This document shows, piece by piece, positions 2,224 to 58,050 of a DNA stretch of 64,000 nucleotides. This DNA comes from an uncultured Candidatus Saccharibacteria bacterium. GTDB lineage: Bacteria; Patescibacteriota; JAUYIX01; CAYMIK01. Within the stretch, counting starts at the first letter, position 1, and each line of letters begins with the position of its first letter. Below the pieces are notes generated by a model. That model was not told the DNA's origin and did no database searches. It saw only the letters and a list, made by a program, of their open reading frames with translations. A program made the translations under genes and the position numbers. Location: NCBI GenBank assembly GCA_964390745.1, contig CAYMIK010000001.1:48670-112669 (forward strand). Reading direction: 5' to 3'.

Positions 2224-2235
2224 GCCTCCTCCTTG

Positions 2236-7380: not shown

Positions 7381-7421
7381 TTTTAGATCAAATTATTGCG
7401 AGATGAAGTATAACAAAAATT

Positions 7422-8012: not shown

Positions 8013-8100
8013 TCAAGAAAATAAGAACCAAGCCGGGCCTTGCGACGTCGCGGATGCGTCGTCGAAAGGTCACCGGCTGGCGCCAAGCTCTTGGGCTTGG

Positions 8101-28021: not shown

Positions 28022-31000
28022 ATGAGAAACGGGATTTCCTTTTTTGAGAAATTAGCACGTCTTGCCGTTGTGGCAGGGGTTGTTTTTATGTCTTCAGGAG
28101 CTTCGTATATTGTGAAGTTGCCAGTGGCAAAAGCTGTAACGGTCATGACGGTGGAGGATCTTGCGGATGGAACAGGTGACAGTGACTGCACCAATGGTGC
28201 GACGCTTCGAGAAGCTTTTGGAACAGGCAATGGCTGCGTAAACGACAGCGAAAGCCCCGATACCGCATACACGCTCAACCTTACGGAAACCGGCACATAC
28301 CTTACTTCGGCTAGTGTTACCATTCCAGCTAACATTAGCGTTACTATCATCGGCCAAGGTTCTGGCGCAACCACTATTTCAAGCACCTCAACGGATCCAT
28401 TTCTTACTACCACTGCCGGCACTGGTTCACTCAGTATTTCTGCCCTTACTATCACCGCTTCAACGGAATTTCAATATGTAGTAGGTGTTGCAACGCCGAT
28501 GGATGGCAACGTTACTATTGATCACGTGACTATTCACGCCGAAGATGCTATCCCGCTGTTCATAGGGGCCGGCTCAGCCGATGGAGTTGAGTCACTTGGC
28601 GGAGCTTCGATTACCAATTCAACATTCAATGCAAATAATAACGGCATCTATGTTGGACTCAGGCCCGGAATGTTCGAAGTTTCGCGAGCGCATGTTTTTG
28701 ACACCGAATTCGACATTACCAATAACGTATTTAATATTGACGATGGTACGGGTGGCATTGGCGCCTCAAACGCCATAACGTTTTTGGCTACAACGGCATC
28801 AGCGGATATTGAAAACAATGACATCAATATGACTGGTACGGGCAACTTGGCTGGGGGAGTATATATTGGTAACTTTTACGATGAGGCGGGTACCCTTTTG
28901 GGCGACCCAATGATCATCGCGGCTAATAACATCTCGGGCGCTCCAGATCTTGGTGGAGGTATTAACATCCAAATGCCATCCTATGGCGGAGCTACGGTTG
29001 GCAGCAATACTATTACGGGCAACATTACCGGCATTAATACGGCTCCTATTGAAATCTTCAACGAAGATTGCTTTTCGGCGGAGTGTGGCAATGTGGGCTC
29101 AACAAGTATTACGAGCAATACTATAGATGTCACTGCTGCGAGTGCGTTTAATGTGTTGAGCTCAGGAATTCTTGCCTACGGCAATACCAACACGATTGCA
29201 TTTAATTACGTTGCGCTTTCTGATGGCTCTGGCGGTGTCATTCCTGATACCAATGGAATCACCTGTGTCGCTTTTTACAATCAAGCCTGCGATGTTTCAG
29301 GAAATGACGTGAGTGGTTTTGGGCAGTTTGGAATAGCCGGACTTGTGCCTGTAGATGGCGTAACCTTGAACATGACGGCAACAAATAACCTTGTGCACGA
29401 TGCGCAAACAAGTACTGCGCGTGGAATCACTATACAGGCCGCAGACTATGGGATGGGGGATCCGGAATCTACAACGCTGAACTTTGACGTCATGAATAAT
29501 ACGATTGCGAATGTCTCAACGAGTGGTGGTGGCGCCATTGTCGCTGATACCGATACGACGTCTGTGACCGGCGACGTTGTAAATGCATCAATCTTCAATA
29601 ATATCGTTGAGAATAATGCGTATGGCATTGGCACCATAACCGCCGGTGGTTCTGATGAAACGATTGTCATGCACAATGATTACAATTTAGTACATACAAC
29701 TCTCATTGCACCAGCGGCAGATAACTATTTTGGAACTATGAGTACGGGCGATGTTGCGGCAGGTGATCATGATGTTTCTTCGGCGGCGAGCTTTGTGGGC
29801 TCAGGCGACTATTCACTTGCTCCGTCATCACCAGCTCTCAATGCTGGCGCGGGCTCTTTCTACTCGCTTGATGCACCAACCACTGATATTGCTGGAACCA
29901 CTCGTCCGCAAGGAGCGGGCTATGATATTGGTGCTTTTGAGCTTGCAGTAAATGCTTCACCAATCGCAAACGCTGGATCCGATCAGTACACCAGCATCAA
30001 CGAAACAAACACACTGAACTGCTCGGGTTCAACCGACCCCGATGATGACACGCTCACGTACTCCTGGTCACAAACTGCTGGAAGTTCGGTGACGCTTTCT
30101 TCTGCATCAGCGGCAGCGCCAACATTTACGCCAACAAGTCTTGGCGACAGAACTTTCCGTTGCACCGTGAACGATGGTACTAATCCGAGCGTTTATGACG
30201 ATGTTGTTGTTCATGCTACCGCAAAGCGCATTGCAGGCGCGGATCGATACAGCACCTCTGTTGCCATTTCTCAGGCCCAGTACACAAGCTCGCATACAGT
30301 ATCAGCCATGGTAATAGCTTCGGGCGAAAACTATCCCGATGCCTTGGCGGCTGGCCCACTTGCAGCACTCGTTCATGGCCCCGTACTTCTGGTTCAAAAA
30401 ACATGGGCGCCATCACAAATCCGCACAGAAATTGCACGGCTCTGGAATAATGTTGATGATAGTGCCAACGATATTTATATTGTTGGTGGTACAAGCGCTA
30501 TTTCTGATTCGGTGAAAAACCAAATTCAGGCAGTGAACTCAAAACTTGATATCAAGCGTCTCGCAGGATCCGATCGAATTGATACGGCGCTCATGATTGC
30601 CAAAGAGATGGACAGTATACGTGGTCAGAGCCCAACCAATGTTTCGGTTGCTTCCGGATACAACTATCTCGATGCTGCCGCTATTGCTGTGCCAGGTTCG
30701 GATTCGAGCATTAACTCACGATATATTCCAGTTTTGCTCACTGGTACCACAAGTCTCGATTCTCGAGTGAATTCGTACATAAAGAGCAAAAAAAGTAGCA
30801 TCTCTAAGGTTTGGATTGCTGGTTCTACCAGCAACGTGTCGTCTTCTGCGCAGACATCCTTGAATGCTATTGTTGGATCGTCAAAGGTTACGCGACTTTC
30901 TGCCTCGACCCACGAAGACGTAGCTGTAGTCATTGCCACACAGTTTTATGCGGCTCCAGCATCTGTTGGTCTCACCACTACTGAGAGTTTCCCAGACGTT

Positions 31001-31186
31001 CTCGCGGCTGGCCCGTTTGCTGGTGCTCGACGCATGCCCATATTGTATTCAGACAATGTTTTAGTGAATGATACTCTGGCATCTTACGAAGATGCGCGTG
31101 CAGCTTCACTCGCGTCGGTGTACGTCTTTGGCGGCACATCAGCGATATCGAACGGAACGAAGCAAATCCTGCAGCAACACCTCTAA
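28022..31186 (+). CDS. Paralogous large secreted/cell-surface protein (1054 aa): beta-helix, PKD-like repeats, CWB2 repeats
   Basis: Same architecture as 24243..27920, and a near-identical C-terminal third (RIAGADRYSTSVAISQAQYTSSHTVSAMVIASGENYPDALAAGPLAALVHGPVLLVQKTWAP...). Own promoter TTGAAA-17-TATGAT at about 27975-28005. Confidence 0.75.
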   Translation: MRNGISFFEKLARLAVVAGVVFMSSGASYIVKLPVAKAVTVMTVEDLADGTGDSDCTNGATLREAFGTGNGCVNDSESPDTAYTLNLTETGTYLTSASVTIPANISVTIIGQGSGATTISSTSTDPFLTTTAGTGSLSISALTITASTEFQYVVGVATPMDGNVTIDHVTIHAEDAIPLFIGAGSADGVESLGGASITNSTFNANNNGIYVGLRPGMFEVSRAHVFDTEFDITNNVFNIDDGTGGIGASNAITFLATTASADIENNDINMTGTGNLAGGVYIGNFYDEAGTLLGDPMIIAANNISGAPDLGGGINIQMPSYGGATVGSNTITGNITGINTAPIEIFNEDCFSAECGNVGSTSITSNTIDVTAASAFNVLSSGILAYGNTNTIAFNYVALSDGSGGVIPDTNGITCVAFYNQACDVSGNDVSGFGQFGIAGLVPVDGVTLNMTATNNLVHDAQTSTARGITIQAADYGMGDPESTTLNFDVMNNTIANVSTSGGGAIVADTDTTSVTGDVVNASIFNNIVENNAYGIGTITAGGSDETIVMHNDYNLVHTTLIAPAADNYFGTMSTGDVAAGDHDVSSAASFVGSGDYSLAPSSPALNAGAGSFYSLDAPTTDIAGTTRPQGAGYDIGAFELAVNASPIANAGSDQYTSINETNTLNCSGSTDPDDDTLTYSWSQTAGSSVTLSSASAAAPTFTPTSLGDRTFRCTVNDGTNPSVYDDVVVHATAKRIAGADRYSTSVAISQAQYTSSHTVSAMVIASGENYPDALAAGPLAALVHGPVLLVQKTWAPSQIRTEIARLWNNVDDSANDIYIVGGTSAISDSVKNQIQAVNSKLDIKRLAGSDRIDTALMIAKEMDSIRGQSPTNVSVASGYNYLDAAAIAVPGSDSSINSRYIPVLLTGTTSLDSRVNSYIKSKKSSISKVWIAGSTSNVSSSAQTSLNAIVGSSKVTRLSASTHEDVAVVIATQFYAAPASVGLTTTESFPDVLAAGPFAGARRMPILYSDNVLVNDTLASYEDARAASLASVYVFGGTSAISNGTKQILQQHL

Positions 31187-31277: not shown

Positions 31278-33668
31278 ATGCCACGCAAAAGAAAAAACAG
31301 TTCCAAGATGCGAACAAGGCTTTCTGAAACGAATTCACGAAAGAAAAGCGAACCTGTGAGCCGATTTGATCTCAAACCCGAAACCAGCCGAGCTATTCTT
31401 GCGGTGGTGGTTTTCGTTTTGGCACTGATCTCGCTGCTCAGCATTTTCCACGCTGCAGGAACCTTTGGCAGACTGTGGATTCACTATGTTTCATTGCTTT
31501 TTGGAATTGGCGTGTATGTAATGCCGCTTTTGCTTGTCGCACTCGCATTTGCTATTTTGAATCTTAAAAAGTTTCCGACCAAGAAGACGACCTATCTGGG
31601 ATTTGTGTTGTTTGTTGTGGGCTTTGTTGGTTTAGCGCACCTTGCTGCAAACCAAGATCAGGCTCTGGATATTGCCGCACGGGGAACGGGCGGTGGATTT
31701 ATCGGGTATGGCATTTCTCGTCCCTTGTACCTGCTCTTTGGCGGTTGGGGAGCTTTGGTTATCCTTGTTGCGGATGTTGTTATTTCGCTCCTGTTGTTCT
31801 TCAATGAATCGATAAAGCTTATTATGGAAAAGATTCGTCTTGCAGACCGCGAGGTAGACGAAGACGAAGAAGCCGATGAAGAGAAAAAGCCTGCACTTGC
31901 ATCCGAAAAAGGACAGCCCAAGATGCGAATTTTGGATTTCAAAGATAAGATGGCCAAGAAAAAGGAAGACAACGTGAAGGTTTTGGAGATGCGCGAGAAG
32001 GGAAAAGAAGAAAGCTTTGGTCCTGCTATTGAAACGAAGAAAAATCGTGATATTAACTGGGAGTTTCCACCACTCAAGCTATTGGATGATGCATTGGATC
32101 GCCCTTCTTCGGGAGATATTAAGAGCAACGCGAAAATTATTCAGGATACTTTGGCCAACTTCGGTATAAATGTTGAGATGGGCGATGTTTCTGTTGGGCC
32201 AACCGTAACGCAGTATACCTTGCGTCCTGAAGCGGGAACCAAACTTTCAAAAATTGTAGCCTTGCAAAACGATTTGGCTTTGGCTTTGGCCGCTCACCCT
32301 ATTCGAATTGAAGCTCCTATTCCTGGAAAGTCTGTTGTGGGTATCGAAATTCCGAATGTTACTATTGCCACGGTCCGTATTCGTGAACTTTTGGAAAGCA
32401 AAGAATTTCACCAGGCCAAAGGTGACCTCTTGTTCCCACTTGGTCGCGATGTTTCTGGTGTGCCCATTGTCTCTACCGTTGAAAAGATGCCACACTTGTT
32501 GATCGCTGGTGCTACGGGTTCTGGTAAGTCTGTTGCCATTAACGCGCTGCTCATTAGCTTGCTCTACCACAACACTCCAGAAGATTTGAAACTTATTCTG
32601 GTTGACCCAAAACGCGTGGAACTTTCACACTACAACGATATACCGCACCTGCTTACACCCGTTATAACCGAAGCAAAGAAAACGGTGAACTCATTGAAGT
32701 GGATCGTGGGCGAAATGGATCGACGATACAAACTCTTGCAGGCACACGGTGCTCGAAACATCCAAAGCTACAACGAGAAAAATACCGAAAGTCATTTGCC
32801 AAAAATTGTTTTGGTCATTGATGAGTTGGCGGATCTCATGGCGGTTGCAGCACGCGAAGTAGAAGCTTCCATTGTTCGTTTGGCGCAAATGGCTCGTGCG
32901 GTGGGTATTCACTTGGTAGTAGCAACCCAGCGTCCTTCCGTTGATGTTATTACGGGTCTTATCAAGGCAAACATCCCAACACGTATTGCCTTTAGCGTGG
33001 CTTCTTCGGTAGATTCGCGAACTATTTTGGATACCGTAGGTGCTGATAAGTTGCTTGGAAATGGTGACATGCTGTATCTCCCGCAGGAACTTTCGAAACC
33101 AAAACGTATTCAGGGCGCATTCGTCAGTGAAGGTGAAGTCGAAAAAGTTACGGACTTTTTGAAGAACAAGCGCGAACCAGAATATGTTGAAGAGGTTACG
33201 GCAAAACAAGGCGCTGTTCCTGGAATCCCAGGAAGCGGTGACGAAGCTGACGATGACTTGTACGGCGAAGCAAAGCAGGTTGTTATTGAAATGGGTAAGG
33301 CTTCGGCTTCATTGTTACAACGACGTTTGCGCGTTGGATATGCTCGTGCTGCTCGCTTGATCGACCTTCTTGAGCAAAATGGTGTTGTTGGCCCAGGCGA
33401 AGGTGCAAAACCACGTGAGATTTTGATTGGCCAAGAAGGTGAAAATCTTGCAACCGTTTCTGATGGCGAAGGATTTGATGCGCACGATGGAGAGAAGCCT
33501 CGAATTGCTGAGGATGATGCAATGGAGAACGAAGAGTCACGTGATAGCTCGAACCATACAGAAGAACGGGAACCTACCCAAGAAACGCAAGAGTCACCCG
33601 AAGAAGACAACGATACGCCACCCGATGAAGATGACGATAACAACAACTCATCACGAAGAGACTGGTAA
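31278..33668 (+). CDS. ftsK: DNA translocase FtsK/SpoIIIE
   Basis: N-terminal TM helices, Walker A GATGSGKS, LVVATQRPSVDVITG, C-terminal gamma-like domain. 796 aa. Confidence 0.9.
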   Translation: MPRKRKNSSKMRTRLSETNSRKKSEPVSRFDLKPETSRAILAVVVFVLALISLLSIFHAAGTFGRLWIHYVSLLFGIGVYVMPLLLVALAFAILNLKKFPTKKTTYLGFVLFVVGFVGLAHLAANQDQALDIAARGTGGGFIGYGISRPLYLLFGGWGALVILVADVVISLLLFFNESIKLIMEKIRLADREVDEDEEADEEKKPALASEKGQPKMRILDFKDKMAKKKEDNVKVLEMREKGKEESFGPAIETKKNRDINWEFPPLKLLDDALDRPSSGDIKSNAKIIQDTLANFGINVEMGDVSVGPTVTQYTLRPEAGTKLSKIVALQNDLALALAAHPIRIEAPIPGKSVVGIEIPNVTIATVRIRELLESKEFHQAKGDLLFPLGRDVSGVPIVSTVEKMPHLLIAGATGSGKSVAINALLISLLYHNTPEDLKLILVDPKRVELSHYNDIPHLLTPVITEAKKTVNSLKWIVGEMDRRYKLLQAHGARNIQSYNEKNTESHLPKIVLVIDELADLMAVAAREVEASIVRLAQMARAVGIHLVVATQRPSVDVITGLIKANIPTRIAFSVASSVDSRTILDTVGADKLLGNGDMLYLPQELSKPKRIQGAFVSEGEVEKVTDFLKNKREPEYVEEVTAKQGAVPGIPGSGDEADDDLYGEAKQVVIEMGKASASLLQRRLRVGYARAARLIDLLEQNGVVGPGEGAKPREILIGQEGENLATVSDGEGFDAHDGEKPRIAEDDAMENEESRDSSNHTEEREPTQETQESPEEDNDTPPDEDDDNNNSSRRDW

Positions 33669-35143
33669 TGTCGATTGAAGACTATCTCACAAGGCCGCCC
33701 GTACCCGAAGACGATGCAAATCTTCCGGAGGTTCATGAACCTGTAGATACTCGCTGGTATTCTCGAATGGAGCAGTATGGCACATTCGAAGATTTTGCGT
33801 ACCTTGATGGGGCTGGATGGCGTCGTGAAGAAGAAAAACAAAAGTTCCTTGCCGGCGAAACAGAAAATCCTATGCTGGACTATCCAAAGATTCGTCCAGA
33901 GTTTTTGCATAATCGTTTGGTGAATCTTGTAATGCTGCGGGAAGAGATTGAAGCAGAAGAGCAAGATCCCTACGTGAAAAGTGAGTATCTTGCAAAGATC
34001 AATCATCGCCTTGCCGAAGCTACTATGCTCCAGGCAACACTTCGTGGAGACATGGAACAATTTGATGAGTGCAGCAAGTTTATCTACGGTGACCCATCGC
34101 CAGAAATCTTTTCATACTTTGTTCACCGCAGAAGGGAACAGGCAAAGAAGCTTCTCGAGAGTCCCGATGAATTCAAAAGAGCGGCTGCGCAAGATTTTCT
34201 TGATTCGTTTCCCGATGTTGAGAAACCAGACCTCGAACCGGTTCCGGCAGAGTTTGTGAAGAAGGTTGGAGAACAAGTACATACGGAGCTACGAGAAGTC
34301 TGGGGAGTTGATGCAAAAGAAGGCGAAAGAGAGTATGCCTCCGAAGAAGTTCTAGAACTCGTCGAAGAGTTGCTTCAAAAACTTGAAGCAGAAGGATGGA
34401 GAGCTCGGCTCGCTGATCGGGGAGGATTCTCTATCAGCCAAGAAGAGCGGGCAGTAAATATTCCAAGGAACAAAAGGTACAAAGAAGCTGCTCTCTATGA
34501 GCTTTTGACCCATGAAATTTTGACGCATGTAGCCAAGCGTGTCATTGGTGCGCGCACGAATATTCAGCTTTATCAAATCGGCTCTGATGATTACGATATC
34601 GGCGAGGAGGGCCTTACGACGCTGAGGCAGTCAGCGCTGTTTGGTAAGTACAAAGAATATGCGGGTGGCGAAAACTATGTAGGAATATCGGTGGCACGTG
34701 GATTTGAAAGACAGGAAGATGGTTCTATTCAGGCAACCCACCCACGAGATTTTCGTGAGACATTCGATATGATGAAAAAGTATTCAAAGGTTGGTTTGCT
34801 GATAGACAATCCAAAGATATCCGAGCAAGATCTCGAAAAACAATCCAAGGACGCTGCTTGGACGAGATGCGTGCGAACATTCCGTGGAACAGATTGCAAA
34901 ACCAAGGGTGTATGTCTGAATCGTGACTTATTTTACGCCGATGGAAATATAAAGATGTGGCGACTCTTTCAAGAGAACGGCGAAAACAGCATTCCATACA
35001 CCATGGCGATCTCTATGATTGGAAAAACAAATCCTACAAACCCGCAAACCCTCAAAGCAGGCTCGCATTTTAACCTCATGATGGTTCGTTTTCAGCGAGA
35101 CGCCACCAATGCAGAGGTGCAGGCGCTCCGACATCCCCAATAG
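33668..35143 (+). CDS. Putative HExxH zinc metallopeptidase-like protein (DUF1704/QEGLA-like), translationally coupled to ftsK
   Basis: 491 aa. ELLTHEILTHVAKR carries HExxH. DIGEEGLTT resembles the QEGLA motif of the DUF1704 family. Start overlaps the ftsK stop (TAATG). Confidence 0.5.
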   Translation: MSIEDYLTRPPVPEDDANLPEVHEPVDTRWYSRMEQYGTFEDFAYLDGAGWRREEEKQKFLAGETENPMLDYPKIRPEFLHNRLVNLVMLREEIEAEEQDPYVKSEYLAKINHRLAEATMLQATLRGDMEQFDECSKFIYGDPSPEIFSYFVHRRREQAKKLLESPDEFKRAAAQDFLDSFPDVEKPDLEPVPAEFVKKVGEQVHTELREVWGVDAKEGEREYASEEVLELVEELLQKLEAEGWRARLADRGGFSISQEERAVNIPRNKRYKEAALYELLTHEILTHVAKRVIGARTNIQLYQIGSDDYDIGEEGLTTLRQSALFGKYKEYAGGENYVGISVARGFERQEDGSIQATHPRDFRETFDMMKKYSKVGLLIDNPKISEQDLEKQSKDAAWTRCVRTFRGTDCKTKGVCLNRDLFYADGNIKMWRLFQENGENSIPYTMAISMIGKTNPTNPQTLKAGSHFNLMMVRFQRDATNAEVQALRHPQ

Positions 35144-37068: not shown

Positions 37069-38151
37069 CTATTTCTGCTTCTTCGATAGCAACTTCCTTA
37101 AATCCTTTTTCTTTGTGAGAATGTCAGCCCAAGCATCACCTGATTTTTCGAGTATGTTTGGCACATTTGCCATGGTGAAATCTTTTGGTGAAACGGTTTC
37201 CAGCTGCTTCCAGGAAACCGGCATTGAAACAGTAGCATCTTTGTAGGCGCGGACACTGTAGATAGAAGCGAGCGTCTTTCCTAGAGAGTTTTGGTTGAAG
37301 TCAAAAAAGATTTTTCCACGACGCTTCGGTACAGACCACTCCATTGTAATCTTTTTGGGGTCAGACTGAAGTATAAAGTTTCCAATTTCTCGTGCCATCT
37401 CTCGCGTTTCTTCGTAGGTTACGTCTCGTTTTATTGGAGTGTAGATATGGATGCCAGTTTTTCCAGAAAGCTTCACGAACGGTGTGAGTTGTAGCTGTTT
37501 CATAACATCGTACACTTTGAATGCTACCTCACGAGTTGCTTCAAAAGACTTTTTATTGCGCTCGGGTTCAGCATGGGCCTTCTCTTTGCCCGAATATATA
37601 TAGGGATCCAGGTCAAAGACCATAAAATCTGGATAGTTCAAAATACTTTTCCGAACATTCTCTTTTGAACTGGTAAATTTTGTTGGTTTCTTTGCAGCGT
37701 CGGGCGCACTCGTATTCATTCGCGAGTACCATGGGTGAAAATCAACTATACCAAGCTGAACGAACCACAGAATGGTTTGAAGGTTTTCAACAAGAAAGAA
37801 CGGGAAGTCCGATTCTTTGTCTCCCGAGAACATGTCGAATGTTTTTACGAACTTTGGCACCTCGCTTTGCGGGTGTTTTTGAAAGAACGATAAACCCGTA
37901 ACACCATGCGGATATCGAACTACTGTCACGGGCCGATCTTTGAGGTGGGGTAACAAGTATGGCGAAACATTTGTGTAGTACGCAAGAAGCTCGCGTTTCG
38001 TATACCCCCTGCTTTCTCTGGTCTTGGGCCAAAATGGTTTATCGAGATGTGTCACCTCAATATGATCAGAACCAATCTTTAGCGAGCCGCCCTCATTGGG
38101 CAGCTCTTTGAGTTGTTGTAAGGTCGCTTTTGCAACTTTCTTAGAAGTCAT
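37069..38151 (-). CDS. NHEJ DNA polymerase/primase (LigD polymerase domain, stand-alone)
   Basis: 360 aa. LigD PolDom-like conserved blocks (VTHLDKPFWP, YYTNVSPYLLPHLKDRP, VDFHPW, FDLDP). 4-nt overlap with the upstream ligase gene. Confidence 0.75.
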   Translation of the reverse strand: MTSKKVAKATLQQLKELPNEGGSLKIGSDHIEVTHLDKPFWPKTRESRGYTKRELLAYYTNVSPYLLPHLKDRPVTVVRYPHGVTGLSFFQKHPQSEVPKFVKTFDMFSGDKESDFPFFLVENLQTILWFVQLGIVDFHPWYSRMNTSAPDAAKKPTKFTSSKENVRKSILNYPDFMVFDLDPYIYSGKEKAHAEPERNKKSFEATREVAFKVYDVMKQLQLTPFVKLSGKTGIHIYTPIKRDVTYEETREMAREIGNFILQSDPKKITMEWSVPKRRGKIFFDFNQNSLGKTLASIYSVRAYKDATVSMPVSWKQLETVSPKDFTMANVPNILEKSGDAWADILTKKKDLRKLLSKKQK

Positions 38152-39158
38152 TTTGGCCTTTCGAGGATTACGTCTTTTGGCTTTTTATCAACACGAAGCC
38201 CCACAAAAACGGGCTTGCGAAGTTTCACGTCACGTGTAACTTCGGCATATTTTACCTCGCACACAAACTGCGGGCGCATCCAGTGTGGGCGCGCGGCCAT
38301 GAGTCCGTAAGTTTCAAAGGGGGAGGTTTGACGTTCCAGTTTTCGAAATTTTTTCATGAGGTCCAGAAGCATCTGGTCATTAAAACCCGTACCAACATTT
38401 CCCATGTGGATGAGTTTCTTGGTTTTTGGATCATGTGTTCCAAGAATCAGCGCGCCAAAGACATCGTTTCGAGCACCTTTGCCTTCTGTCCAGCCACAAA
38501 TAATAAATTCTTGTTGGTTATTACCTTTTATCTTTTGCCAGATTCGTGTTCCTGCAACGTATTCGCTCTCGGCATGTTTTGCAACCATTCCTTCGAAACC
38601 TTTTTGCATCATGAGCCTGAAAAACTTCTTTCCTGTTTTTGGAACCGCCGGAACAAATTGCACCAAACCTTTTTTGGGTACGACTCTCTCAAGAAAGTTT
38701 TTTCGCTCAATAAACGGGACACGAACAAAGCTTCGTCCTTCGAAGTAGGGAAGATCAAAGACGAAAAAAGCGACAGGATGCTTGGTGACCAGTGTGGAAA
38801 TATCTTCATCGGTTCCAATGCCAAGCCGTGGTTGAATGTCTTGAAAGCCCAAGATATTCGTATTCGAGATTGCGGTAATCTCGCCGTCCAAAACAAAGTT
38901 TTTGTAAGGAAGTCTGGCGACCGCTGCGGCAATTTCCGGAAACTGATAGGAAATATCATTTCCACGACGCGTAACGAGTGAAACCTTGGGCCCTTTCTTG
39001 AATGCAAGCGCACGAACACCATCAAACTTTACTTCAAAGAAAGTTTCAGCGTCATCAAATGGTTCGGCAATGAGCTGACACAGTGCTGGCACAAAAAACT
39101 TGGGATAAGCGGCCCGTTTTGCAAGAGATGGAGAAAGTTTTTTGTGAGCCACAGCCAT
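38148..39158 (-). CDS. ligD: ATP-dependent DNA ligase (LigD ligase domain, stand-alone)
   Basis: 336 aa. Adenylation motif I EVKFDGVR, an OB-fold domain, and EG(M/I)VAK motif. Confidence 0.8.
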   Translation of the reverse strand: MAVAHKKLSPSLAKRAAYPKFFVPALCQLIAEPFDDAETFFEVKFDGVRALAFKKGPKVSLVTRRGNDISYQFPEIAAAVARLPYKNFVLDGEITAISNTNILGFQDIQPRLGIGTDEDISTLVTKHPVAFFVFDLPYFEGRSFVRVPFIERKNFLERVVPKKGLVQFVPAVPKTGKKFFRLMMQKGFEGMVAKHAESEYVAGTRIWQKIKGNNQQEFIICGWTEGKGARNDVFGALILGTHDPKTKKLIHMGNVGTGFNDQMLLDLMKKFRKLERQTSPFETYGLMAARPHWMRPQFVCEVKYAEVTRDVKLRKPVFVGLRVDKKPKDVILERPK

Positions 39159-39161
39159 ATA

Positions 39162-39941
39162 TTACTTCGCTACCTTTAAGCTTTCTTGCAAGATGCTCAT
39201 TAGGTCACCAACTTCTACCTTCTTTACGCTCTTGGTTTCTTTTGGAACCTTCAATTTGCCATGACGCTTCTTCTCGATGAGTGCCAACAGTCGTTTCTTG
39301 TAGGTGTCAGTATATTTCGTGGCATCAAACTTGTCAGTCATTTGAGAAATCAGCGAGTGCGCCATTTGAATTTCTTTTTTGGAAAATTCTTGTTTCGGTA
39401 TGGAAACAATTTCTTCTACCGGGCGAAGTGTTTGTGCAAAGTGCATCAGTTCCAACATGAGCGCACCCTTGCGTTCCGTGATGGCTGCTAAATGTTGTTT
39501 ATTTCGAATGACTACTTTGGCAATGCCAAGCTTATCAGAATCATGAAGTGCCTTGGCGAGCAATGAATACGCGCGTTTGCCACCAGTGTCTGGCGCAAGA
39601 GCGTAGGGTTTATCAAATAATAGTGGGTCAACCTCTGATCGATCAACGAACTCCAGGATGCTTACACTTTTTGTGAGTTCTAAGTCTGCGCGCTTAAAAT
39701 CTTTATCGTCTAAAATGACGTACTTTCCTTTTTTGTATTCATATCCTCGGACAATTTCGTCCCAAGGAATGGCACGATTGGAGTTTTGTTCCACGCGAGC
39801 AAAGTGGATGGGTTTCAAATCGGTTTTATGCAAAAAATGAAAACGCAAATTTTCTGTTTTTTGAACAGAGTGCAAAGAAACGGGTATGGAGACGAGTCCA
39901 AAACCGATGGTGCCTTTCCAGAGCGGGCGTCCAGACTTCAT
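39162..39941 (-). CDS. ku: Ku-family DNA end-binding protein
   Basis: MKSGRPLWKGTIGFGLVSIPVSLHSV... is a canonical bacterial Ku N-terminus. 259 aa with a lysine-rich tail. 3 nt upstream of the ligD start. Confidence 0.85.
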   Translation of the reverse strand: MKSGRPLWKGTIGFGLVSIPVSLHSVQKTENLRFHFLHKTDLKPIHFARVEQNSNRAIPWDEIVRGYEYKKGKYVILDDKDFKRADLELTKSVSILEFVDRSEVDPLLFDKPYALAPDTGGKRAYSLLAKALHDSDKLGIAKVVIRNKQHLAAITERKGALMLELMHFAQTLRPVEEIVSIPKQEFSKKEIQMAHSLISQMTDKFDATKYTDTYKKRLLALIEKKRHGKLKVPKETKSVKKVEVGDLMSILQESLKVAK

Positions 39942-40024: not shown

Positions 40025-40064
40025 TTGCAAAAAGAATCACACCGGCTCGGGGCAGCGAGCCGGT
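40025..40064 (-). terminator. Rho-independent terminator of island C gene
   Basis: Minus strand reads CACCGGCTCG-ctgccc-CGAGCCGGTG followed by TGATTCTTTTTGC. Confidence 0.7.
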
Positions 40065-40137
40065 GAAGAAGGGATGCGCGGAATTTCGCGCGATAGTACT
40101 GATTGTCATCTGGCCTGCCCGCCAGAGAGCCCAGCTC

Positions 40138-40485
40138 TCAGCCTGTACGCTGCCGCTGCTCGTTCGCCGAGCAGAGCACGGCAACGGTGCCACGCACATC
40201 GCGGAGGTGGGCCTCCGCGTTCGGCATCCTGTCCCTGATCATGAAGATCAGTTCGGGGTAGGCGGGCGTAAGCAGCGTGTCCACCTCGACGATCACGGTC
40301 GTTGCGCCCAGCATGAGCGCAGCGTTGGGACCCTGTGCGAACCGGGTCAGTACTGCCGCCAGGTTCCGTACGAGCTCCGGGCGCGCGTGGCCATCCAAAG
40401 GATCGGATGGGTCCCGGGCGATGCCCCGCAGTGAGAACCGCGGGCATCCATTTTCGAGACTTCCTTCGGGAATCGTGATTTCCAT
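40138..40485 (-). CDS. Hypothetical 115-aa cytoplasmic protein encoded in a high-GC cassette (island C)
   Basis: MEITIPEGSLENGCPRFSLRGIARDPSDPLDGHARPELVRNLAAVLTRFAQGPNAALMLGATTVIVEV... with RBS GGAGGAAA 4 nt before the ATG at 40483-40485. GC3 very high versus neighbours. Possible roadblock/LC7-like fold, a weak guess. Confidence 0.55.
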   Translation of the reverse strand: MEITIPEGSLENGCPRFSLRGIARDPSDPLDGHARPELVRNLAAVLTRFAQGPNAALMLGATTVIVEVDTLLTPAYPELIFMIRDRMPNAEAHLRDVRGTVAVLCSANEQRQRTG

Positions 40486-40513
40486 CGTTTCCTCCAAACA
40501 CGGGGTTTAACTC

Positions 40514-41709: not shown

Positions 41710-42010
41710 ATTGCAAAAACGGACAACTCACCACTGGCGAGATTGCCGGCGGGGAGGTATCTTGTATTTTCCCCGCGATCGCTCTGGCTGTGGCCAATGT
41801 GGCGTGGGCTAGAGCTTGGTCACGGCGGGGCCGAGCAGAGACCCGGGTGGATCACCGGAAGATTCGGGGTGTCTGTCGGCGAGCGTAAGGCGTAGCGGCC
41901 TCTGCGCGACGGGGACTTCGCGAGGTGCGGAGGTGGGCTGCGTTGGGAGCGGAGCCTCGCCGATCCCACTCCCTTGTCGGTTCCGCCGCGTGCGCAAGCC
42001 GGATTCGAAT

Positions 42011-42226
42011 TCAGGGGTTCCCACTGCTTTTCCCTCCGCGAAGGTCATCCATGCTCAGGATGAGTTTGGGGTTTGTTAGGTCCACGGCGGGACCGGCGAA
42101 GCCGAGTCCACCTCGCCCCTCGACCATCTCCCACGGATCTCGCAGGTGGTAGGGGCGAATTCGTACTTCATTCTCGGCTGTGCGTCCAGAGGATTGAGAC
42201 TTTTCTCCAGCGGGCTCGTTCTTCAT
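42011..42226 (-). CDS. Hypothetical 71-aa protein in high-GC island D (possibly the 5' part of a frameshifted longer gene)
   Basis: MKNEPAGEKSQSSGRTAENEVRIRPYHLRDPWEMVEGRGGLGFAGPAVDLTNPKLILSMDDLRGGKSSGNP with strong RBS AAGGAAGAGG 3 nt before ATG. A second ORF in the +1 frame (41809..42048) continues for 79 aa. Confidence 0.4.
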   Translation of the reverse strand: MKNEPAGEKSQSSGRTAENEVRIRPYHLRDPWEMVEGRGGLGFAGPAVDLTNPKLILSMDDLRGGKSSGNP

Positions 42227-42393
42227 GGCCTCTTCCTTCTGACAGCGATGTGAATGATGCCATGGTACACACAAAACCCCTCTTTCGTAAAGGGTACTTT
42301 TCGGCTATAATGAACGTACTTTAATGTCTGCTTTAGACATTTTTAAGGAGGAGCTGGTAGTTTCAAGGAGCGAAGTAATTAAAGAAAGGTTTT

Positions 42394-45300: not shown

Positions 45301-45365
45301 CCTTCGGCTTTTCAAAAAAACAAAAGGCACAAAGGAAGGCTTTTGCTTTTTTGAAAAGCCGAAGG
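45301..45365 (-). terminator. Long inverted repeat (19-bp perfect arms) with flanking T/A tracts between rpsR and efp; probable terminator of the rpsF-ssb-rpsR operon
   Basis: CCTTCGGCTTTTCAAAAAA (45301-45319) ... TTTTTTGAAAAGCCGAAGG (45347-45365). Confidence 0.6.
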
Positions 45366-46213: not shown

Positions 46214-46873
46214 CTACTTATCGATGTCTGGATTCTTGTCCAAGTCGTCTTCTAAGATTTCATCAAGCTTCTTATCGATAGCTTCCAAATCTTTTTCAGA
46301 GGTAACCTTCTTTTCGGCCAAATCTTTCTTCATTTCTTCCTTGATCTTTTCAGCTGTTTCTTTCGTCAAAACTTCCAATTCAGGATCAGCGGCAGCAGCT
46401 TTTGCTTCTTTCTTCTTGGCTCGTTTTGCATCGCGTTCAGCTTGCAATCGTTTTACCTTCTCGGAGTCTTTCTTGATGAGCAAGAAACGCATGATTGGTT
46501 CAATGAGCTTCAGCTGCTTTTCGAGGTCAATAACCGTCCGAGGTTGCAAGTTGAGTTTCAAAACAACATACACGCCCATGTTGTGACCGTTGATTTCGTA
46601 TGAAAGTTTTTGCTTTCCCCAAATGCTCTCGTCGGCAATTTTTCCTTCGATTTTCTCAACAATCTTTCGAATGTGTTCAGAAACGGAAGCCTGCTCTACA
46701 TCGTTCACTGTTGGGGTGAGCAAGTAGGTGAGTTCGTACTGAACAGGTTCTTTATTTTCTTCTGCAGCAAAAAGTTCTACATCGGTAGCTTCGGTTTGAA
46801 GTTCCGCGTTGATATCCTTTTTTGCTTCTTCTGCTTCAACTTCTTTCGAAGCCTTGGTCTTTGCATCGGCCAT
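46214..46873 (-). CDS. rpsF: 30S ribosomal protein S6 with long K/E-rich C-terminal extension
   Basis: YELTYLLTPTV...HIRKIVEKIEGKIADESIWGKQKLSYEINGHNMGVYVVLKL... Start chosen at MADAKT (ATG 46871-46873, RBS AAAGGAAAA). The track ORF extends in-frame to 47098 through GC-rich non-coding sequence. Confidence 0.8.
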   Translation of the reverse strand: MADAKTKASKEVEAEEAKKDINAELQTEATDVELFAAEENKEPVQYELTYLLTPTVNDVEQASVSEHIRKIVEKIEGKIADESIWGKQKLSYEINGHNMGVYVVLKLNLQPRTVIDLEKQLKLIEPIMRFLLIKKDSEKVKRLQAERDAKRAKKKEAKAAAADPELEVLTKETAEKIKEEMKKDLAEKKVTSEKDLEAIDKKLDEILEDDLDKNPDIDK

Positions 46874-47116
46874 TGATTTTCCTTTATGTATAGCTAAAAA
46901 ATAGGGTCCAGACATGGGTGCCCCGCGTATAAAGGCGGGATCTGGAAGCCCCCGCAGCTTATCATTTGGGGTGTTTTTTGTCAAGAACATGGGGCAAATT
47001 CGAAGCCCCCTCGACCACGCAGTGGCGTGAGCGAAGGAGGCCCCGAAGGACAGCCGTTGGCGGTACAACTTCGGGCGCCGTCTTCTGTCTAGGGCCAAGA
47101 AGGCGGCGTTGTGCGG

Positions 47117-47272
47117 CTACTCGAGCCGCTCTGAGAGAGCATGGAAACCGAGCGCGATGACGAGTAGTGTGAATCCGGTGTAGGGCAGGTCGTGGTCGAT
47201 GAACCAGCAACCCACGCCTCCTACTTTCTCGCATGCTCGGTTGAGTGAGCTGCTAAGTGTCAGACGGTCCAT
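47117..47272 (-). CDS. Hypothetical 51-aa small membrane protein, 2nd gene of high-GC island E
   Basis: MDRLTLSSSLNRACEKVGGVGCWFIDHDLPYTGFTLLVIALGFHALSERLE. RBS GAGAGGAG 5 nt before the ATG. One TM segment. Begins 32 nt after the stop of the 185-aa gene. Confidence 0.4.
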   Translation of the reverse strand: MDRLTLSSSLNRACEKVGGVGCWFIDHDLPYTGFTLLVIALGFHALSERLE

Positions 47273-47304
47273 CGAGCTCCTCTCGTATGAGTCAGGATGT
47301 GTAG

Positions 47305-47862
47305 CTAACCTCGTGTCAGAAACAGACCCAGAACGATTGCGAAGGGGACCAGGATCATCGCGATGAGGTTCACGAAGATCCAAAACAGGTCCCTGGCGGT
47401 CAGATAGTTCAGAACAGGCCACCGGCCTCCGAAAAACAACTGATGGAGGCGACAGGCAAAACGATCGTGATGCTTCTCGAGCGGAGTCGCCGTGACGTTG
47501 TCGTCCGGCCAGCCTCGGGGAGCAAGCTTTCTGAAGACTCGCATCTTCACTGCGTTGGTCTGGTTCCTTGCACACCTCGAGAGCTTGAACGGGATTGTGG
47601 AGGCCACGAGCAGCAGAATCCCGATCATGTTGAACGGTCCCATCTTGGGGTAAGGCCGTGGTAGCCGTGTCCCAGGTGGGTCCAGGTGCATCCACCGCGC
47701 GTTGCTCGGATCGTGGGCGTCTTCAAGCAGTGGGATGGGGTTTCCGAATCCCCACGCCATGAAAGCTTCGCAGCCCCATTGAAGGAGGCCGCCTGCGAAC
47801 ATCACGATTCCAGCGAGAGAGTCCAGGAAGGGGGTGCGCTCGTCATGCAGCTTCGCCATCAT
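47305..47862 (-). CDS. Hypothetical 185-aa membrane protein (3 predicted TM helices) in high-GC island E
   Basis: MMAKLHDERTPFLDSLAGIVMFAGGLLQWGCEAFMAWGF...FNMIGILLLVASTIPF...LFWIFVNLIAMILVPFAIVLGLFLTRG. RBS AAAGGAAG upstream. High GC. No recognisable family. Confidence 0.55.
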   Translation of the reverse strand: MMAKLHDERTPFLDSLAGIVMFAGGLLQWGCEAFMAWGFGNPIPLLEDAHDPSNARWMHLDPPGTRLPRPYPKMGPFNMIGILLLVASTIPFKLSRCARNQTNAVKMRVFRKLAPRGWPDDNVTATPLEKHHDRFACRLHQLFFGGRWPVLNYLTARDLFWIFVNLIAMILVPFAIVLGLFLTRG

Positions 47863-47953
47863 GAGGCTTCCTTTCGATCGGCTCGAAGCCGAGGAATGAG
47901 CAAAACTGCCTGCAGTCTAGCAGGAAGGTGTTTTTAAAATCAAGTTTCTTATG

Positions 47954-49057
47954 TTAATTCGCAAAGAAGAAGTGCATGACATCGCCGTCTTGGACGACGT
48001 AGTCTTTGCCTTCGAGTTTCAATTTTCCGTGTTCACGGCAACCGGCTTCTCCGTTGAATTGAACAAAGTCTTGCCAGTTGATGACTTCTGCTTTGATAAA
48101 TCCGTTTTCGAAGTCGGTGTGAATAACACCAGCAGCTTGCGGTGCCTTGGTGCCGCGCGTTATCGTCCATGCGCGAGTTTCGGTGGGGCCACTCGTTAAA
48201 TAGGTGATGAGGTTTAAAGCTTCGTATGATTTTTGAACGAGGTCATCAAGGCCAGACTGTTTGAGTCCGTAGGTTTCGAGCAATTCTTTTTTCTCTGTCT
48301 CATCGAGCTCGGAAAGTTCTTGTTCAATTTTGACCGAAATAGCCACGGCTTCTTTAATCTCTGGTTTTTTTGCCATAACGTCTTGAAGAATTTTTTCTCG
48401 ATCTTGAATCTGTGATTCAGAAATATTCAAAACATATACAAATGGTTTGCTGGTGATAAGCTGCAAGTCGTGAATGATTTTTGCTTCGTCAGCATCTGCA
48501 GGCGAAACCGTGTTGGCCAGCTTTCCTTCGCTCAATGCTTTTTGGAGTTTTTCGTAGGCGACAGCTTCTTTGATGGATTGTTTATCGCCCGACTTCGCTT
48601 TTTTTGAGACAGCTGAAAGTCGTTTTTCGGTGGTTTCGAGATCTGCCAAAACAAGTTCTGCGTTAATTACTTCGATGTCATCCATTGGGTCAACGCGTCC
48701 TGAGACATGAATAATATCGCCGTCTTCAAACGCTCGCACGATGTGTGCAATGGCATCAACTTCACGAATGTTGGCGAGAAATTTATTTCCTAAACCTTCG
48801 CCTTTGTGCGCGTCTTTTACGAGCCCAGCAATATCGACAAATTCAATGGTGGTTGGAAGTTTTTTTACTGATTGCGAAACAACCGCAAGTTTTTCAATGC
48901 GTTCGTCGGGAACGGTAACGGTTCCAACATTTGGTTCAATGGTTGCAAACGGATAGTTTGCAGCTTCAACCTGATTTTTTGTAATGGCATTAAAGAGGGT
49001 AGACTTTCCAACGTTTGGAAGGCCAACAATGCCGACAGCAAATGACATATTATTCAA
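47954..49057 (-). CDS. ychF: Ribosome-binding ATPase YchF
   Basis: (MNN)MSFAVGIVGLPNVGKSTLFNAIT..., an Obg-like G domain, and a C-terminal TGS domain (VQDGDVMHFFFA). Confidence 0.9.
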   Translation of the reverse strand: MNNMSFAVGIVGLPNVGKSTLFNAITKNQVEAANYPFATIEPNVGTVTVPDERIEKLAVVSQSVKKLPTTIEFVDIAGLVKDAHKGEGLGNKFLANIREVDAIAHIVRAFEDGDIIHVSGRVDPMDDIEVINAELVLADLETTEKRLSAVSKKAKSGDKQSIKEAVAYEKLQKALSEGKLANTVSPADADEAKIIHDLQLITSKPFVYVLNISESQIQDREKILQDVMAKKPEIKEAVAISVKIEQELSELDETEKKELLETYGLKQSGLDDLVQKSYEALNLITYLTSGPTETRAWTITRGTKAPQAAGVIHTDFENGFIKAEVINWQDFVQFNGEAGCREHGKLKLEGKDYVVQDGDVMHFFFAN

Positions 49058-56137: not shown

Positions 56138-56214
56138 AGCCCGTTCACAATCTCTGTTCTGTTCCTTAACATCAATTCGACACTCGAGGTGAACATCGAG
56201 TGTGGAGGAACATC

Positions 56215-57963
56215 GTGGAAAAGCCCAAGCTTACGTGGAGCCAGGCTATGACGATTGGCGCCCTGGCCTGGGCGCAAGAAGTTCAACACGAAGTTCGAAC
56301 TATGACTCAGGAGGTTCTCGAGCGCATCCAGCAGTTTTCGTGGATCGCGCTTCGGGCTAACCTCGGGGTGTTCGCAAAGGCGTTTCTGAAGTACATCGCG
56401 CCTGCGCTCATCCCGCTCGTGCTCATGCTCGTGGTTCCTTCGGCAGTCGGAGGAATCGTGAAGCTGCTCTGTGTGCCCGTCTTCATCGCTGTCGCCCGTT
56501 GGGGCTACAAGCGGTTCAAGGCGGCGTGTTGGGACAAGCCGTGGATTTTTCTTGCGGCTTCGATCGCCATCCCTGTGGTGGCGAGCTTCGGGTTCCGATA
56601 CGCCATCCAGGCGTTCGGGTTCAAGCTCTTGCTCGTCGCGATCCCACTAACCCTGATTCGGTTCATGTGGAGTTTCGGACGTCTCACGCTCGTGCTGTTT
56701 GCGGAGACGTTCGTACTGGTTGCTGTTGTCTTCAACTTCGGCTTCCCGCGCGTCTTCAAGTGCGATGCCCAGAGGGGCGTCGAGCCTCTCGTGACTGGGT
56801 GCACCATCACCCAGAACCACATCCCGTGGAACACGATGACGATGTCGAGTATCCTCGGGGACTGGTTGAAGACGTTGCCCGGGTTTCCGGGTAACTCCAA
56901 CGTCTCCGCTACCTTCCGAGACATTTCGGTGTCTTCGGATGGCAAGGCGTTCTGGGGAGTGGCCGGATGGTCGGACACTCAGGTGGAGAAGTCCGTGGCG
57001 GTCAAGATCGATATCGCGACCCACAAGGTCATCAAGGCGATCTGGATCTATACGCCATTTACGGTTCGCTGCAGCAAAGAGTTCGGTCTCTGTTCTATCG
57101 TTTCGCAGATGGGTAATCGAGTCTATCTGATCGATGACGTCACCAACGAGGTCGTGCGAGAGTACGATCTCAGTGGGGCGATGCCAAGCTACCAGATGGA
57201 AACAGGGAGAGGAGAGATCCTTTTCCTGTGCATGCCCTCCAGCGGTATCGACCGAGAGCGCATTGCGCCGCTCGGACCAGTGGAGCAGGTTCGCTGGGAA
57301 GACACCGGCGCCTCGCTACTTCTGGGTAAGCTGGAACTGGCGACGGGAGTCTTTACGATCCAGCCGGTGAAGGGCAAGTACGACAGCGCCCTCATGGGTA
57401 AGGAGACCATGTTCGCTTCGTATGACCCGGTACATGAGAAGATCATGCTGGGTGCAACAAAGTTGGGCGTTATCGACCTCGGGTCGATGACGTACAGCAA
57501 GGTGCCTGGCAGCGGTCTCACGCAGTTTCTTCCGGGAAACACGACGGCCGGTGCCGTGGTGGATACCCGGACCGGGACCATCTACGCAAACAGACCAGCA
57601 TTCGGCATCTATAGTTACCGCTACGAGAACGGCGTGCTGCGGGTGACGGGGAAGATCTCCGTGGACCTTGGTGGGCGTCTTCTTCTGACCGATCCGCGAC
57701 GCGGATTGGTCTACAGCGCGAACTATGGGCGTGGATTTGTGGAGGTCATCGACCCTACAGTACCTAGCCCAAAGCCGATGCGATGGACGGTGGGTAACAA
57801 CATCCGTAGCCTCAAGCTTGATCTCGGCGAGAGCCCGGATGAAGACTGGCTGTATGTTGCCAGCGCGTTCGGATATACGAGAATCAATCTGAGCGAGGCC
57901 CTCGGGGAGCGTTACCTCCCGAATGTACAGACCGCGTCGAATTCGGATGCGGTCATACGGTGA
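56215..57963 (+). CDS. Hypothetical membrane protein (4-5 N-terminal TM helices) with C-terminal YVTN-like beta-propeller domain, encoded in high-GC island F
   Basis: 583 aa from the GTG at 56215; the track starts at 56200. TM helices IAPALIPLVLMLVVPSAVGGIV, FLAASIAIPVVASFGF, LLLVAIPLTLIRFMW, LTLVLFAETFVLVAVVF. C-terminal repeats resemble YVTN propeller blades (VYLIDDVTNEVVREYDL, LGATKLGVIDLGSMTYSKV, GLVYSANYGRGFVEVIDPTV). High GC. Confidence 0.6.
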   Translation: MEKPKLTWSQAMTIGALAWAQEVQHEVRTMTQEVLERIQQFSWIALRANLGVFAKAFLKYIAPALIPLVLMLVVPSAVGGIVKLLCVPVFIAVARWGYKRFKAACWDKPWIFLAASIAIPVVASFGFRYAIQAFGFKLLLVAIPLTLIRFMWSFGRLTLVLFAETFVLVAVVFNFGFPRVFKCDAQRGVEPLVTGCTITQNHIPWNTMTMSSILGDWLKTLPGFPGNSNVSATFRDISVSSDGKAFWGVAGWSDTQVEKSVAVKIDIATHKVIKAIWIYTPFTVRCSKEFGLCSIVSQMGNRVYLIDDVTNEVVREYDLSGAMPSYQMETGRGEILFLCMPSSGIDRERIAPLGPVEQVRWEDTGASLLLGKLELATGVFTIQPVKGKYDSALMGKETMFASYDPVHEKIMLGATKLGVIDLGSMTYSKVPGSGLTQFLPGNTTAGAVVDTRTGTIYANRPAFGIYSYRYENGVLRVTGKISVDLGGRLLLTDPRRGLVYSANYGRGFVEVIDPTVPSPKPMRWTVGNNIRSLKLDLGESPDEDWLYVASAFGYTRINLSEALGERYLPNVQTASNSDAVIR

Positions 57964-57976
57964 TGGAGGTTCTGTT

Positions 57977-58050
57977 CAGGACGCTGTGTCGTCCTGAATT
58001 CGCCCGGTGCGCACTCTTTTTCGAAGAGAGCGCCCGGGTTTTTCTTTTGC
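57977..58050 (+). terminator. Tandem hairpins plus T-run terminator after island F gene
   Basis: TTCAGGACG-ctgtgt-CGTCCTGAA, then GCGCACTCTT-tttcg-AAGAGAGCGC followed by CCGGGTTTTTCTTTTG. Confidence 0.55.

Follow-up and report, generated by a model that had tools for sequence, protein, structure and literature searches.

Morons, by their original definition, reside in phage or prophage genomes. Like small genomic islets, they insert a single gene that brings its expression signals along and deviates in base composition. A segment of about 0.9 kb, here called islet E, resembles them in being a short insert of one or two genes with deviant composition and codon usage, placed between genes that are adjacent in relatives, with ribosome-binding sites of its own, possibly a promoter and hairpins, and no mobility genes; it lies between ychF and rpsF in the 64-kb stretch of bacterial DNA analysed here (contig CAYMIK010000001.1 of assembly GCA_964390745.1; the whole stretch is called the window, and all positions are counted from its first nucleotide). 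Unlike a moron, islet E sits in a cellular chromosome among housekeeping genes and has no match in PHROGs, so the likeness is one of analogy and not of membership. What it offers as promoter and terminator is weak and unproven, namely a promoter-like site with 8 of 12 consensus matches and hairpins that lack a U-tract.

Classical genomic islands are also made of DNA of foreign composition with accessory genes, but they measure 10–200 kb, and islet E has no integrase, tRNA target or significant direct repeats. Foreign DNA is mostly A+T-richer than its host; islet E is the opposite. A third comparison is the capture of DNA by end joining (Dupuy et al. 2019, PMC6379672). Here, too, genes for Ku, an ATP-dependent ligase and a LigD primase-polymerase are present in the recipient, and the inserts are compositionally distant and come without homology arms, repeats or recombinase. 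In kind, islet E is a new orphan among the small islets acquired by horizontal transfer, which are a familiar class. We consider it probable that it is a short, horizontally acquired fragment with orphan gene content, derived from an unsampled G+C-richer pool, inserted between genes in moron-like fashion and perhaps captured by end joining.

A G+C-rich insert between ychF and rpsF

The segment and its flanking genes are as follows.

46990–47925, minus strand: islet E, a G+C-rich segment of foreign composition, about 0.94 kb, 58.8% G+C; boundaries ± about 20 nt
47954–49045: ychF, flanking gene (Pfam YchF-GTPase_C, 1e-37; MMR_HSR1, 3e-23)
46214–46873: rpsF, flanking gene for ribosomal protein S6 (Pfam, 3e-20); ssb, rpsR and efp come next

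Composition profiles and a likelihood changepoint separated islet E from the flanking DNA, which has 42–44% G+C. The same difference was found gene by gene: the G+C fraction is 0.584 in orf185 and 0.571 in orf51, the two open reading frames (ORFs) of the islet, and 0.42–0.44 in rpsF and ychF. The trinucleotide frequencies of islet E correlate with those of other G+C-rich islets in the window (r=0.69–0.91), and the correlation with chunks of host DNA is about 0.

The gene order ychF-rpsF-ssb-rpsR is kept in four syntenic genomes (L004, L008, L011 and L065), with efp next in L004 and L008. The spacing from ychF to rpsF is 183–310 nt in these four genomes, compared with about 1080 nt here, which indicates that the ychF-rpsF order is ancestral and that the extra 0.9 kb or so is an insert. 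Islet E is an insertion of deviant composition between genes that are adjacent in relatives. A first-pass annotation, made from the sequence without database searches, had described a G+C-rich module inserted between the rpsF operon and ychF. Composition and syntenic spacing bear this description out, and the codon model shows that the codon usage of the insert is not native. It had set the interval at 46900–47940; the foreign part occupies about 46990–47925 of it, and the lowest 90 nt or so belong to the native promoter and leader of rpsF.

46956–46984, minus strand: native rpsF promoter, TTGACA-N17-TAAGCT; context, outside the insert
46874–46955, minus strand: native 5' leader of rpsF; a G+C-rich hairpin of two helices is predicted at 46904–46953; context

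Three syntenic relatives have a TTGACA-type promoter and a conserved leader, GGCTCCCGGC...CCGGGC...CCAYGGCCTG, before rpsF (leader at 7209–7260 in L004, 7195–7250 in L008 and about 8095–8160 in L013), and in L004 and L008 the promoter stands at the same position relative to the leader as in the window. This conserved promoter and leader place the low edge of the foreign segment at about 46990. A naive G+C changepoint falls at 46904 because the hairpin of the rpsF leader is itself G+C-rich.

The ychF-to-rpsF gap is enlarged in L002 and L009 as well. In L013, two unrelated lipoprotein-like ORFs (146 and 126 amino acids [aa]; 7133–7999) lie on the opposite strand in the same spacer. The insert in L013, together with the wider gaps in L002 and L009, indicates that the spacer tolerates insertions. 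The ORF pair of L013 also suggests that lineage-specific envelope genes have landed in this spacer repeatedly.

In the collection of representative genomes, the nearest YchF matches are 56–57% identical and belong to metagenome-assembled genomes labelled Peregrinibacteria/Peribacteria or Saccharibacteria and to others whose labels are doubtful. The source species is absent from this set; the organism is therefore poorly sampled, and its description as Patescibacteria-like tentative.

Four further features lie within or at the ends of islet E. The two palindromes listed here had been pointed out in the first-pass annotation, and both are present.

47914–47943, minus strand: weak promoter-like element upstream of orf185, TTGATT-18 nt-TAGACT, with 8/12 consensus matches; overlaps the ychF-distal hairpin
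47909–47924, minus strand: palindrome CCTGC-TAGACT-GCAGG, then CAGTTTTG; weak intrinsic-terminator-like hairpin downstream of ychF
47879–47891, minus strand: palindrome CGGCTTCGAGCCG, with a 5-bp stem and a 3-nt loop, in the putative 5' untranslated region (UTR) of orf185
46991–47116, minus strand: G+C-rich tail at the 3' end; three hairpins, none with a U-tract (fold of 46874–47116, z=-2.1)

The loop of the CCTGC-TAGACT-GCAGG hairpin is the -10-like TAGACT, and the promoter-like element as a whole falls below the 9/12 cut-off of our promoter scan. The terminator scan returned four such sites in the region, compared with 3.0 ± 1.7 in shuffled sequences, and the ychF hairpin alone is not significant. 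Since the only promoter-like site has 8/12 matches and overlaps a weak ychF hairpin, read-through from ychF is the likelier source of expression for islet E. The tail at 46991–47116 probably served the imported fragment as a 3' UTR and does not code for protein.

orf185, orf51 and the membrane-module reading

Islet E carries one gene and one possible gene, each preceded by a Shine-Dalgarno motif. The first-pass annotation had given the 185-aa and 51-aa ORFs, the 32-nt gap between them and the GAGGAG motif, all of which are present as described.

47305–47862, minus strand: orf185, orphan membrane protein gene, 185 aa, ATG start; NCBI annotates the exact protein (P0001)
47867–47872, minus strand: AGGAAG, Shine-Dalgarno-like, ending 4 nt upstream of the orf185 ATG
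47117–47272, minus strand: orf51, possible 51-aa gene, ATG start, 32 nt after orf185; coding status uncertain
47277–47282, minus strand: GAGGAG, Shine-Dalgarno motif of orf51, ending 4 nt before the ATG

Several long ORFs overlap in this G+C-rich DNA, so an open frame alone is no proof of a gene. The G+C fractions at codon positions 1, 2 and 3 (GC1/2/3) are.60/.44/.72 for orf185, and.67/.53/.50 and.73/.56/.48 for the overlapping 192-aa and 90-aa ORFs; GC3 of about 30 host genes is.38–.51. The orf185 values are the pattern typical of genes in G+C-rich genomes. The difference between GC3 and GC2 in orf185 (0.285) was reached in 0 of 5000 shuffles (P below 2e-4), and the phase signal is continuous across all 558 nt in one frame. 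With a codon model for which the ORFs of the other islets were the only training set, contrasted with their off-frames, we obtained +0.18 per codon for the orf185 frame and negative scores for the other five frames. The training genes themselves, in a leave-one-out procedure, scored +0.10 to +0.33 per codon, and orf185 lies within this range. We conclude that orf185 is very likely a true gene.

In all likelihood orf185 encodes a small protein of the inner membrane. It would have two or three helices, and its strongly basic loop of 64 aa would lie in the cytoplasm and include an amphipathic helix. It had been called a three-transmembrane protein, and two of the segments are firm, namely residues 76–93 (Kyte-Doolittle 1.6) and 158–182 (up to 2.7); the third, at residues 13–39 near the N-terminus, is weaker and reaches only about 1.3. 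The loop at residues 94–157 holds 12 lysine or arginine residues, and the C-terminus is TRG, three residues past the last helix. By the positive-inside rule, this arrangement suggests a topology with the N-terminus inside, the basic loop in the cytoplasm and the C-terminus outside. A single-sequence AlphaFold2 model has helices at residues 10–38, 76–113, 127–144 and 156–183, with a predicted local distance difference test (pLDDT) score of 54.

In the collections searched, orf185 is an orphan. Neither orf185 nor orf51 matched a Pfam or NCBIfam family at E<=1 or a PHROGs or PADLOC family at E<=0.1, which agrees with the first-pass reading in that orf185 matches no housekeeping family. Against PDB sequences orf185 had no significant match (best E=0.21), tblastn of phage and plasmid collections was empty, as were protein and profile-pattern scans of metagenome and viral collections, and a word-indexed search of 5.8 billion clusters matched orf185 to itself only. 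An exhaustive phmmer search of 1.84 billion representatives returned orf185 itself and one partial relative of 72 aa, P0003 (E=2.2e-4). Residues 19–72 of P0003 align with residues 7–60 of orf185 at 44% identity (pairwise E=1e-13), and the match spans the first hydrophobic helix and an NPIP motif. Patterns built from this alignment found no further relatives in metagenome or viral collections.

P0003 is carried on L081, a Logan contig of 956 nt from SRR14932694, on which it is followed by a GAGGAG motif, a gene for a 122-aa membrane protein and a third gene. All three L081 genes have islet-type codon usage (GC3.64–.72), which makes the contig a candidate fragment of a donor-type gene pool. L081 resembles islet E in its G+C-rich codon usage and its strong GGAGG-type ribosome-binding sites, and differs in that P0003 is a separate 72-aa gene and that a counterpart of orf51 is absent. 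The layout of the 122-aa protein resembles the rest of orf185, but the sequence similarity is not significant in BLASTP (E=2.5) or local alignment (P=0.28) and is marginal in global alignment (z=2.0, P=0.03). A gene fusion or fission between orf185 and the L081 genes is possible on this comparison, though unproven.

The case of orf51 is more doubtful. Its GC1/2/3 values are.62/.42/.67 (permutation P=0.003, uncorrected for the choice of frame), and its frame is the only one of six with a positive codon score, +0.089 per codon over 51 codons. We estimate that about 1/6 of 51-codon stretches at this G+C content are free of stop codons. The single transmembrane segment proposed earlier is marginal, being a hydrophobic stretch of about 15 residues (33–47) with a maximum of 1.5, and orf51 is missing from the NCBI annotation. 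The 126 nt past its stop codon are in frame with both orf51 and rpsF, and there GC3 remains high (permutation P=0.06), with a codon score of -0.12 per codon in the orf51 frame. The idea that orf51 is the stump of a longer gene, whose frame is open past the TAG, was mostly rejected, as this tail scores non-coding. A 294-aa ORF at 46214–47098 (TTG start) was likewise rejected as an artefact of G+C-rich upstream DNA that is open by chance in the rpsF frame; orf51 shares that extended frame, with one TAG between them. The true S6 gene begins at 46873 and encodes 219 aa, in agreement with the NCBI annotation.

In the first-pass annotation, orf185 and orf51 were read as a large-plus-small pair of membrane proteins, with abortive infection, a holin-like function or bacteriocin immunity as candidates. 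That the two form a functional membrane module of abortive infection or superinfection exclusion, holin-antiholin, toxin-antitoxin or bacteriocin-immunity type seems to us unlikely. The two ORFs do lie on one strand, 32 nt apart and each behind a Shine-Dalgarno motif, and both have islet-type codon usage. The orf185 product is a small polytopic membrane protein, and in orf51 a glycine pair at residues 18–19 is followed by the hydrophobic stretch. Horizontally acquired accessory orphan genes often serve in conflict, and both holins and class II bacteriocin pairs resemble this locus in being small membrane proteins encoded by a small ORF beside a larger membrane ORF.

The details of each system fit poorly. 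Holins are typically under about 150 aa, with 1–4 transmembrane helices and a highly charged hydrophilic C-terminal tail, and their genes sit in a lysis cassette beside endolysin or spanin genes, within a phage or prophage. In contrast, orf185 encodes 185 aa without such a tail, its charge being placed in the internal loop 94–157, and its neighbours are ychF and rpsF-ssb-rpsR-efp and not a lysis cassette. Genes of phages, lysis, peptidase-transporters or toxins were not found nearby, and the holin candidate also lacks a Pfam or PHROG match, just as abortive infection lacks one in PADLOC, at the thresholds given above. The PADLOC models, which gave no match for eight other islet ORFs either, stand for known and candidate defence proteins, and a system not yet described would escape them. 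The double-glycine leader consensus is LSxxELxxIxGG; at positions -4, -7, -8 and -12, orf51 has K, A, R and S in place of I, L, E and L. In class II bacteriocin pairs the immunity gene lies downstream of the peptide gene, whereas here the large ORF comes first and the small one second, and neither islet E nor its immediate flanks contain a gene for a peptidase-domain ABC exporter or an accessory gene. Bacteriocin immunity is thus not borne out by leader, gene order or neighbourhood. Nor is conservation of the pair supported, although a single relative (n=1) is too few to dismiss it: the genes downstream of P0003 in L081 are unlike orf51, which besides is unannotated by NCBI and only marginally hydrophobic.

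Other islets, end joining and the origin of islet E

Besides islet E, the window contains at least five more G+C-rich islets; their G+C contents range over 58–67%. A reading of the ORF maps places all six between intact genes.

1805–3578: islet A, between uvrB and ruvA
8032–8572: islet B, between tsaB and the next gene
40042–40445: islet C, between the Ku gene and rodZ
41720–42247: islet D, between rodZ and recA
56178–58038: islet F, between a small gene and the gene of a large repeat protein
1885–3531, minus strand: four tandem islet ORFs
8101–8523: 140-aa membrane-anchored ORF
40138–40497: 119-aa ORF
56200–57963: 587-aa ORF of islet F, multi-helix plus beta-rich

The main ORFs of these other islets have GC3 values of.69–.85, compared with.38–.51 in the host genes mentioned above. 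Trinucleotide correlations between islets are.66–.91, and those with host DNA about 0. On a codon score that contrasts islet with host usage, every islet ORF lies at +0.35 to +0.54 per codon and eight host genes at -0.35 to -0.53. A Shine-Dalgarno motif was found before 6 of 9 islet ORFs, as against 7 of 29 in the host (Fisher P=0.028); host starts in this count were taken, uncurated, from the longest ORFs. Islet D, with 63% G+C, has no ORF with clean codon periodicity, no Rfam match and a fold z of about -1.7 on both strands, and it may be either a decayed gene or non-coding DNA. A strong terminator stands at the end of islet F.

Nine other islet ORFs were tested, and none matched a Pfam or PADLOC family; there was one marginal PHROG match (E=0.033). 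The islet F protein was a singleton in the search of 5.8 billion clusters, its AlphaFold2 model (pLDDT 41) was too poor for fold comparison, and viral scans with the proteins of islets B, C and F were empty. The islets share no common DNA repeats, and their proteins are not paralogous. With no family for any tested islet gene, the source looks like a mobile-element, viral, accessory or fast-evolving pool.

Islet E has no mobility signatures. The window contains no tRNA or tmRNA gene, and no integrase or transposase was found among the genes examined by Pfam or by eye; islet E itself is too short to hold more than its two ORFs. Flanking repeats of islet E are at chance level (best 9-mer, P=0.16; local alignment, P=0.33). 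As candidates for a target-site duplication we considered AAAAACACC at 46970 and 47927 and GGCTTCGA at 47000 and 47883; these are no better than chance, as 16% of position pairs drawn at random also had repeats of at least 9 nt. Both ends of islet E carry similar promoter-like hexamers, which are best explained as two promoters and not as a duplication. An integron cassette was also rejected, no core-site motifs of an attC site being seen by eye downstream of orf51.

The window also holds a complete end-joining cluster (37069–39941) of three separate genes with native codon usage, and islet C abuts the start of the Ku gene.

37069–38151, minus strand: LigD primase-polymerase (Pfam LigD_Prim-Pol, 1e-75)
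38148–39158, minus strand: ATP-dependent DNA ligase (Pfam DNA_ligase_A_M, 1e-32)
39162–39941, minus strand: Ku (Pfam Ku, 5e-42)

Bacterial end joining can insert heterologous DNA into a chromosomal break, as Dupuy et al. 2019 (PMC6379672) showed by experiment with an engineered break in Sinorhizobium. That paper also cites the correlation of Popa et al. 2011, by which gene acquisition from distant donors is greater in recipients that have end-joining genes. End joining is reported to accompany large genomes (PMC7719229), which would make a Ku-LigD set unusual for a small-genome organism like those of the Candidate Phyla Radiation (CPR). Searches of the literature on end joining in CPR bacteria and on the run SRR14932694 returned nothing relevant.

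The absence of integrase, tRNA, transposase and repeats, at least six islets of like codon usage and the presence of Ku and LigD together lead us to infer capture by end joining. The donor would be a G+C-richer gene pool of about 55–60% G+C and the recipient, at about 45% G+C, probably of Patescibacteria/CPR type. Foreign DNA would be captured illegitimately at chromosome breaks, independently of homology, through Ku and LigD, and selection would keep only the intergenic insertions. Islet E would have landed in a permissive spacer, bounded by the stop codon of ychF and the native promoter of rpsF. The cargo would be the intact orf185 and the 51-codon ORF with its own Shine-Dalgarno motif, maybe a second small gene. 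orf185 could be expressed by read-through from ychF past the weak hairpin, from the weak TTGATT-18-TAGACT promoter, or both.

Several points weigh against this account. The end-joining route is purely circumstantial, and orf51 may be a chance ORF. The orf185 model, at its pLDDT, gives no usable fold. For none of the islet ORFs tested was there a family or a homolog over the full length, which is odd for random fragments of cellular genomes. Furthermore, near-consensus host promoters of TTGACA-N17-TATAAT-like type stand in A+T-rich DNA directly before islets A, C and F, and such host-type promoters are more in keeping with native regulation, or with islets that have resided there for long, than with random capture in the recent past.

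The same promoters favour another reading, in which the G+C-rich ORFs, orf185 among them, are genes native to the lineage and specific to it that owe their composition to ancient acquisition or selective constraints. No mobility genes or repeats and no donor in any database searched are also what this reading would predict. We nevertheless regard it as quite unlikely. GC3 of the islets is 0.25–0.4 above that of every host gene examined, the codon scores are opposite in sign to those of the host, and ribosome-binding-site usage differs. Nothing stands at the site in the four syntenic relatives with short spacers (L004, L008, L011 and L065), and an ancient import should by now approach the composition of the host.

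It is very unlikely that islet E arose as an artefact of assembly or binning, through foreign reads that became part of a metagenome contig. The source appears to be uncultivated, the contig is 118 kb long, the species is absent from the representative genomes (the best YchF match being as distant as stated above), and composition changes abruptly at the islet edges, all of which an artefact could produce. However, all six islets are intergenic, with flanking genes, promoters and leaders intact, for which we estimated a chance of about 0.1 each and about 1e-6 jointly; the host synteny is correct on both sides, and the islet ORFs are complete, with starts and ribosome-binding sites.

Structured RNAs stand out as G+C-rich in A+T-richer genomes, and the 3' tail has three hairpins and a fold z of about -2.1. 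Even so, a structured non-coding RNA gene with incidental ORFs is highly improbable and largely refuted by codon periodicity, in view of the strong three-base periodicity in one frame over the whole 558 nt, the protein-like hydrophobic helices, the similarity to P0003 at the protein level, and Rfam searches with no match at the gathering threshold in the whole window and with chance snoRNA- or lncRNA-like matches on the islet at E<=10.

Within the preferred reading, that of a horizontally acquired fragment, two more specific proposals carry little confidence. As a tentative guess that we hold to be improbable, orf185 might have an accessory role in the envelope, in immunity, exclusion or interaction with a partner; the guess follows from the general tendency of horizontally acquired orphan membrane genes in that direction. 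It is a slim possibility, too, that the six islets are one set of orphan genes, many of them for membrane or envelope proteins, that were captured through Ku-LigD from one unsampled G+C-richer partner, either a host cell or a virus, and domesticated behind host promoters, with orf185 and P0003 forming a new membrane family for partner interaction or immunity.

Neighbouring features and significance

The native leader of rpsF may be a lineage-specific S6/S18 autoregulatory leader. Its hairpin, just downstream of the TTGACA-type promoter, has a 3' bulge that contains CCAYG. Rfam did not match the leader in the window or in L004, L008 and L013. In the S6 protein, the S6 domain covers residues 45–134; an extension of 44 aa precedes it, and a K/E-rich one of about 85 aa follows it at the C-terminus and is present in L013 too. 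Between rpsR and efp, at 45301–45365, lies a 26-nt inverted repeat (96% complementary, 13-nt loop), which is probably a bidirectional terminator.

Several large ORFs were seen elsewhere in the window. Two adjacent ones, at 24243–27920 (1225 aa) and 28022–31186 (1054 aa), have hydrophobic N-terminal segments and share a 300-nt segment (26931–27230 and 30197–30496) with 74% identity. A 1911-aa ORF lies at 10805–16540, and a repeat-rich ORF with reiterated short motifs runs from about 58100 past the end of the window. A 491-aa protein (33668–35143) has a partial match to Pfam MATCAP, microtubule-associated tyrosine carboxypeptidase (E=2e-14), which is odd for a bacterium.

Taken alone, islet E is an ordinary horizontally acquired orphan gene. 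The wider interest lies in the pattern, that of a reduced, poorly sampled bacterium whose many tiny inserts have a common codon usage, are placed between core genes and occur together with end joining. Should this pattern prove real and general, it would show in nature how gene capture independent of homology can shape a small genome. A gene pool so far unsampled, of a host or a virus, would then be indicated as well, and the identity of the donor could reveal the partner organism.

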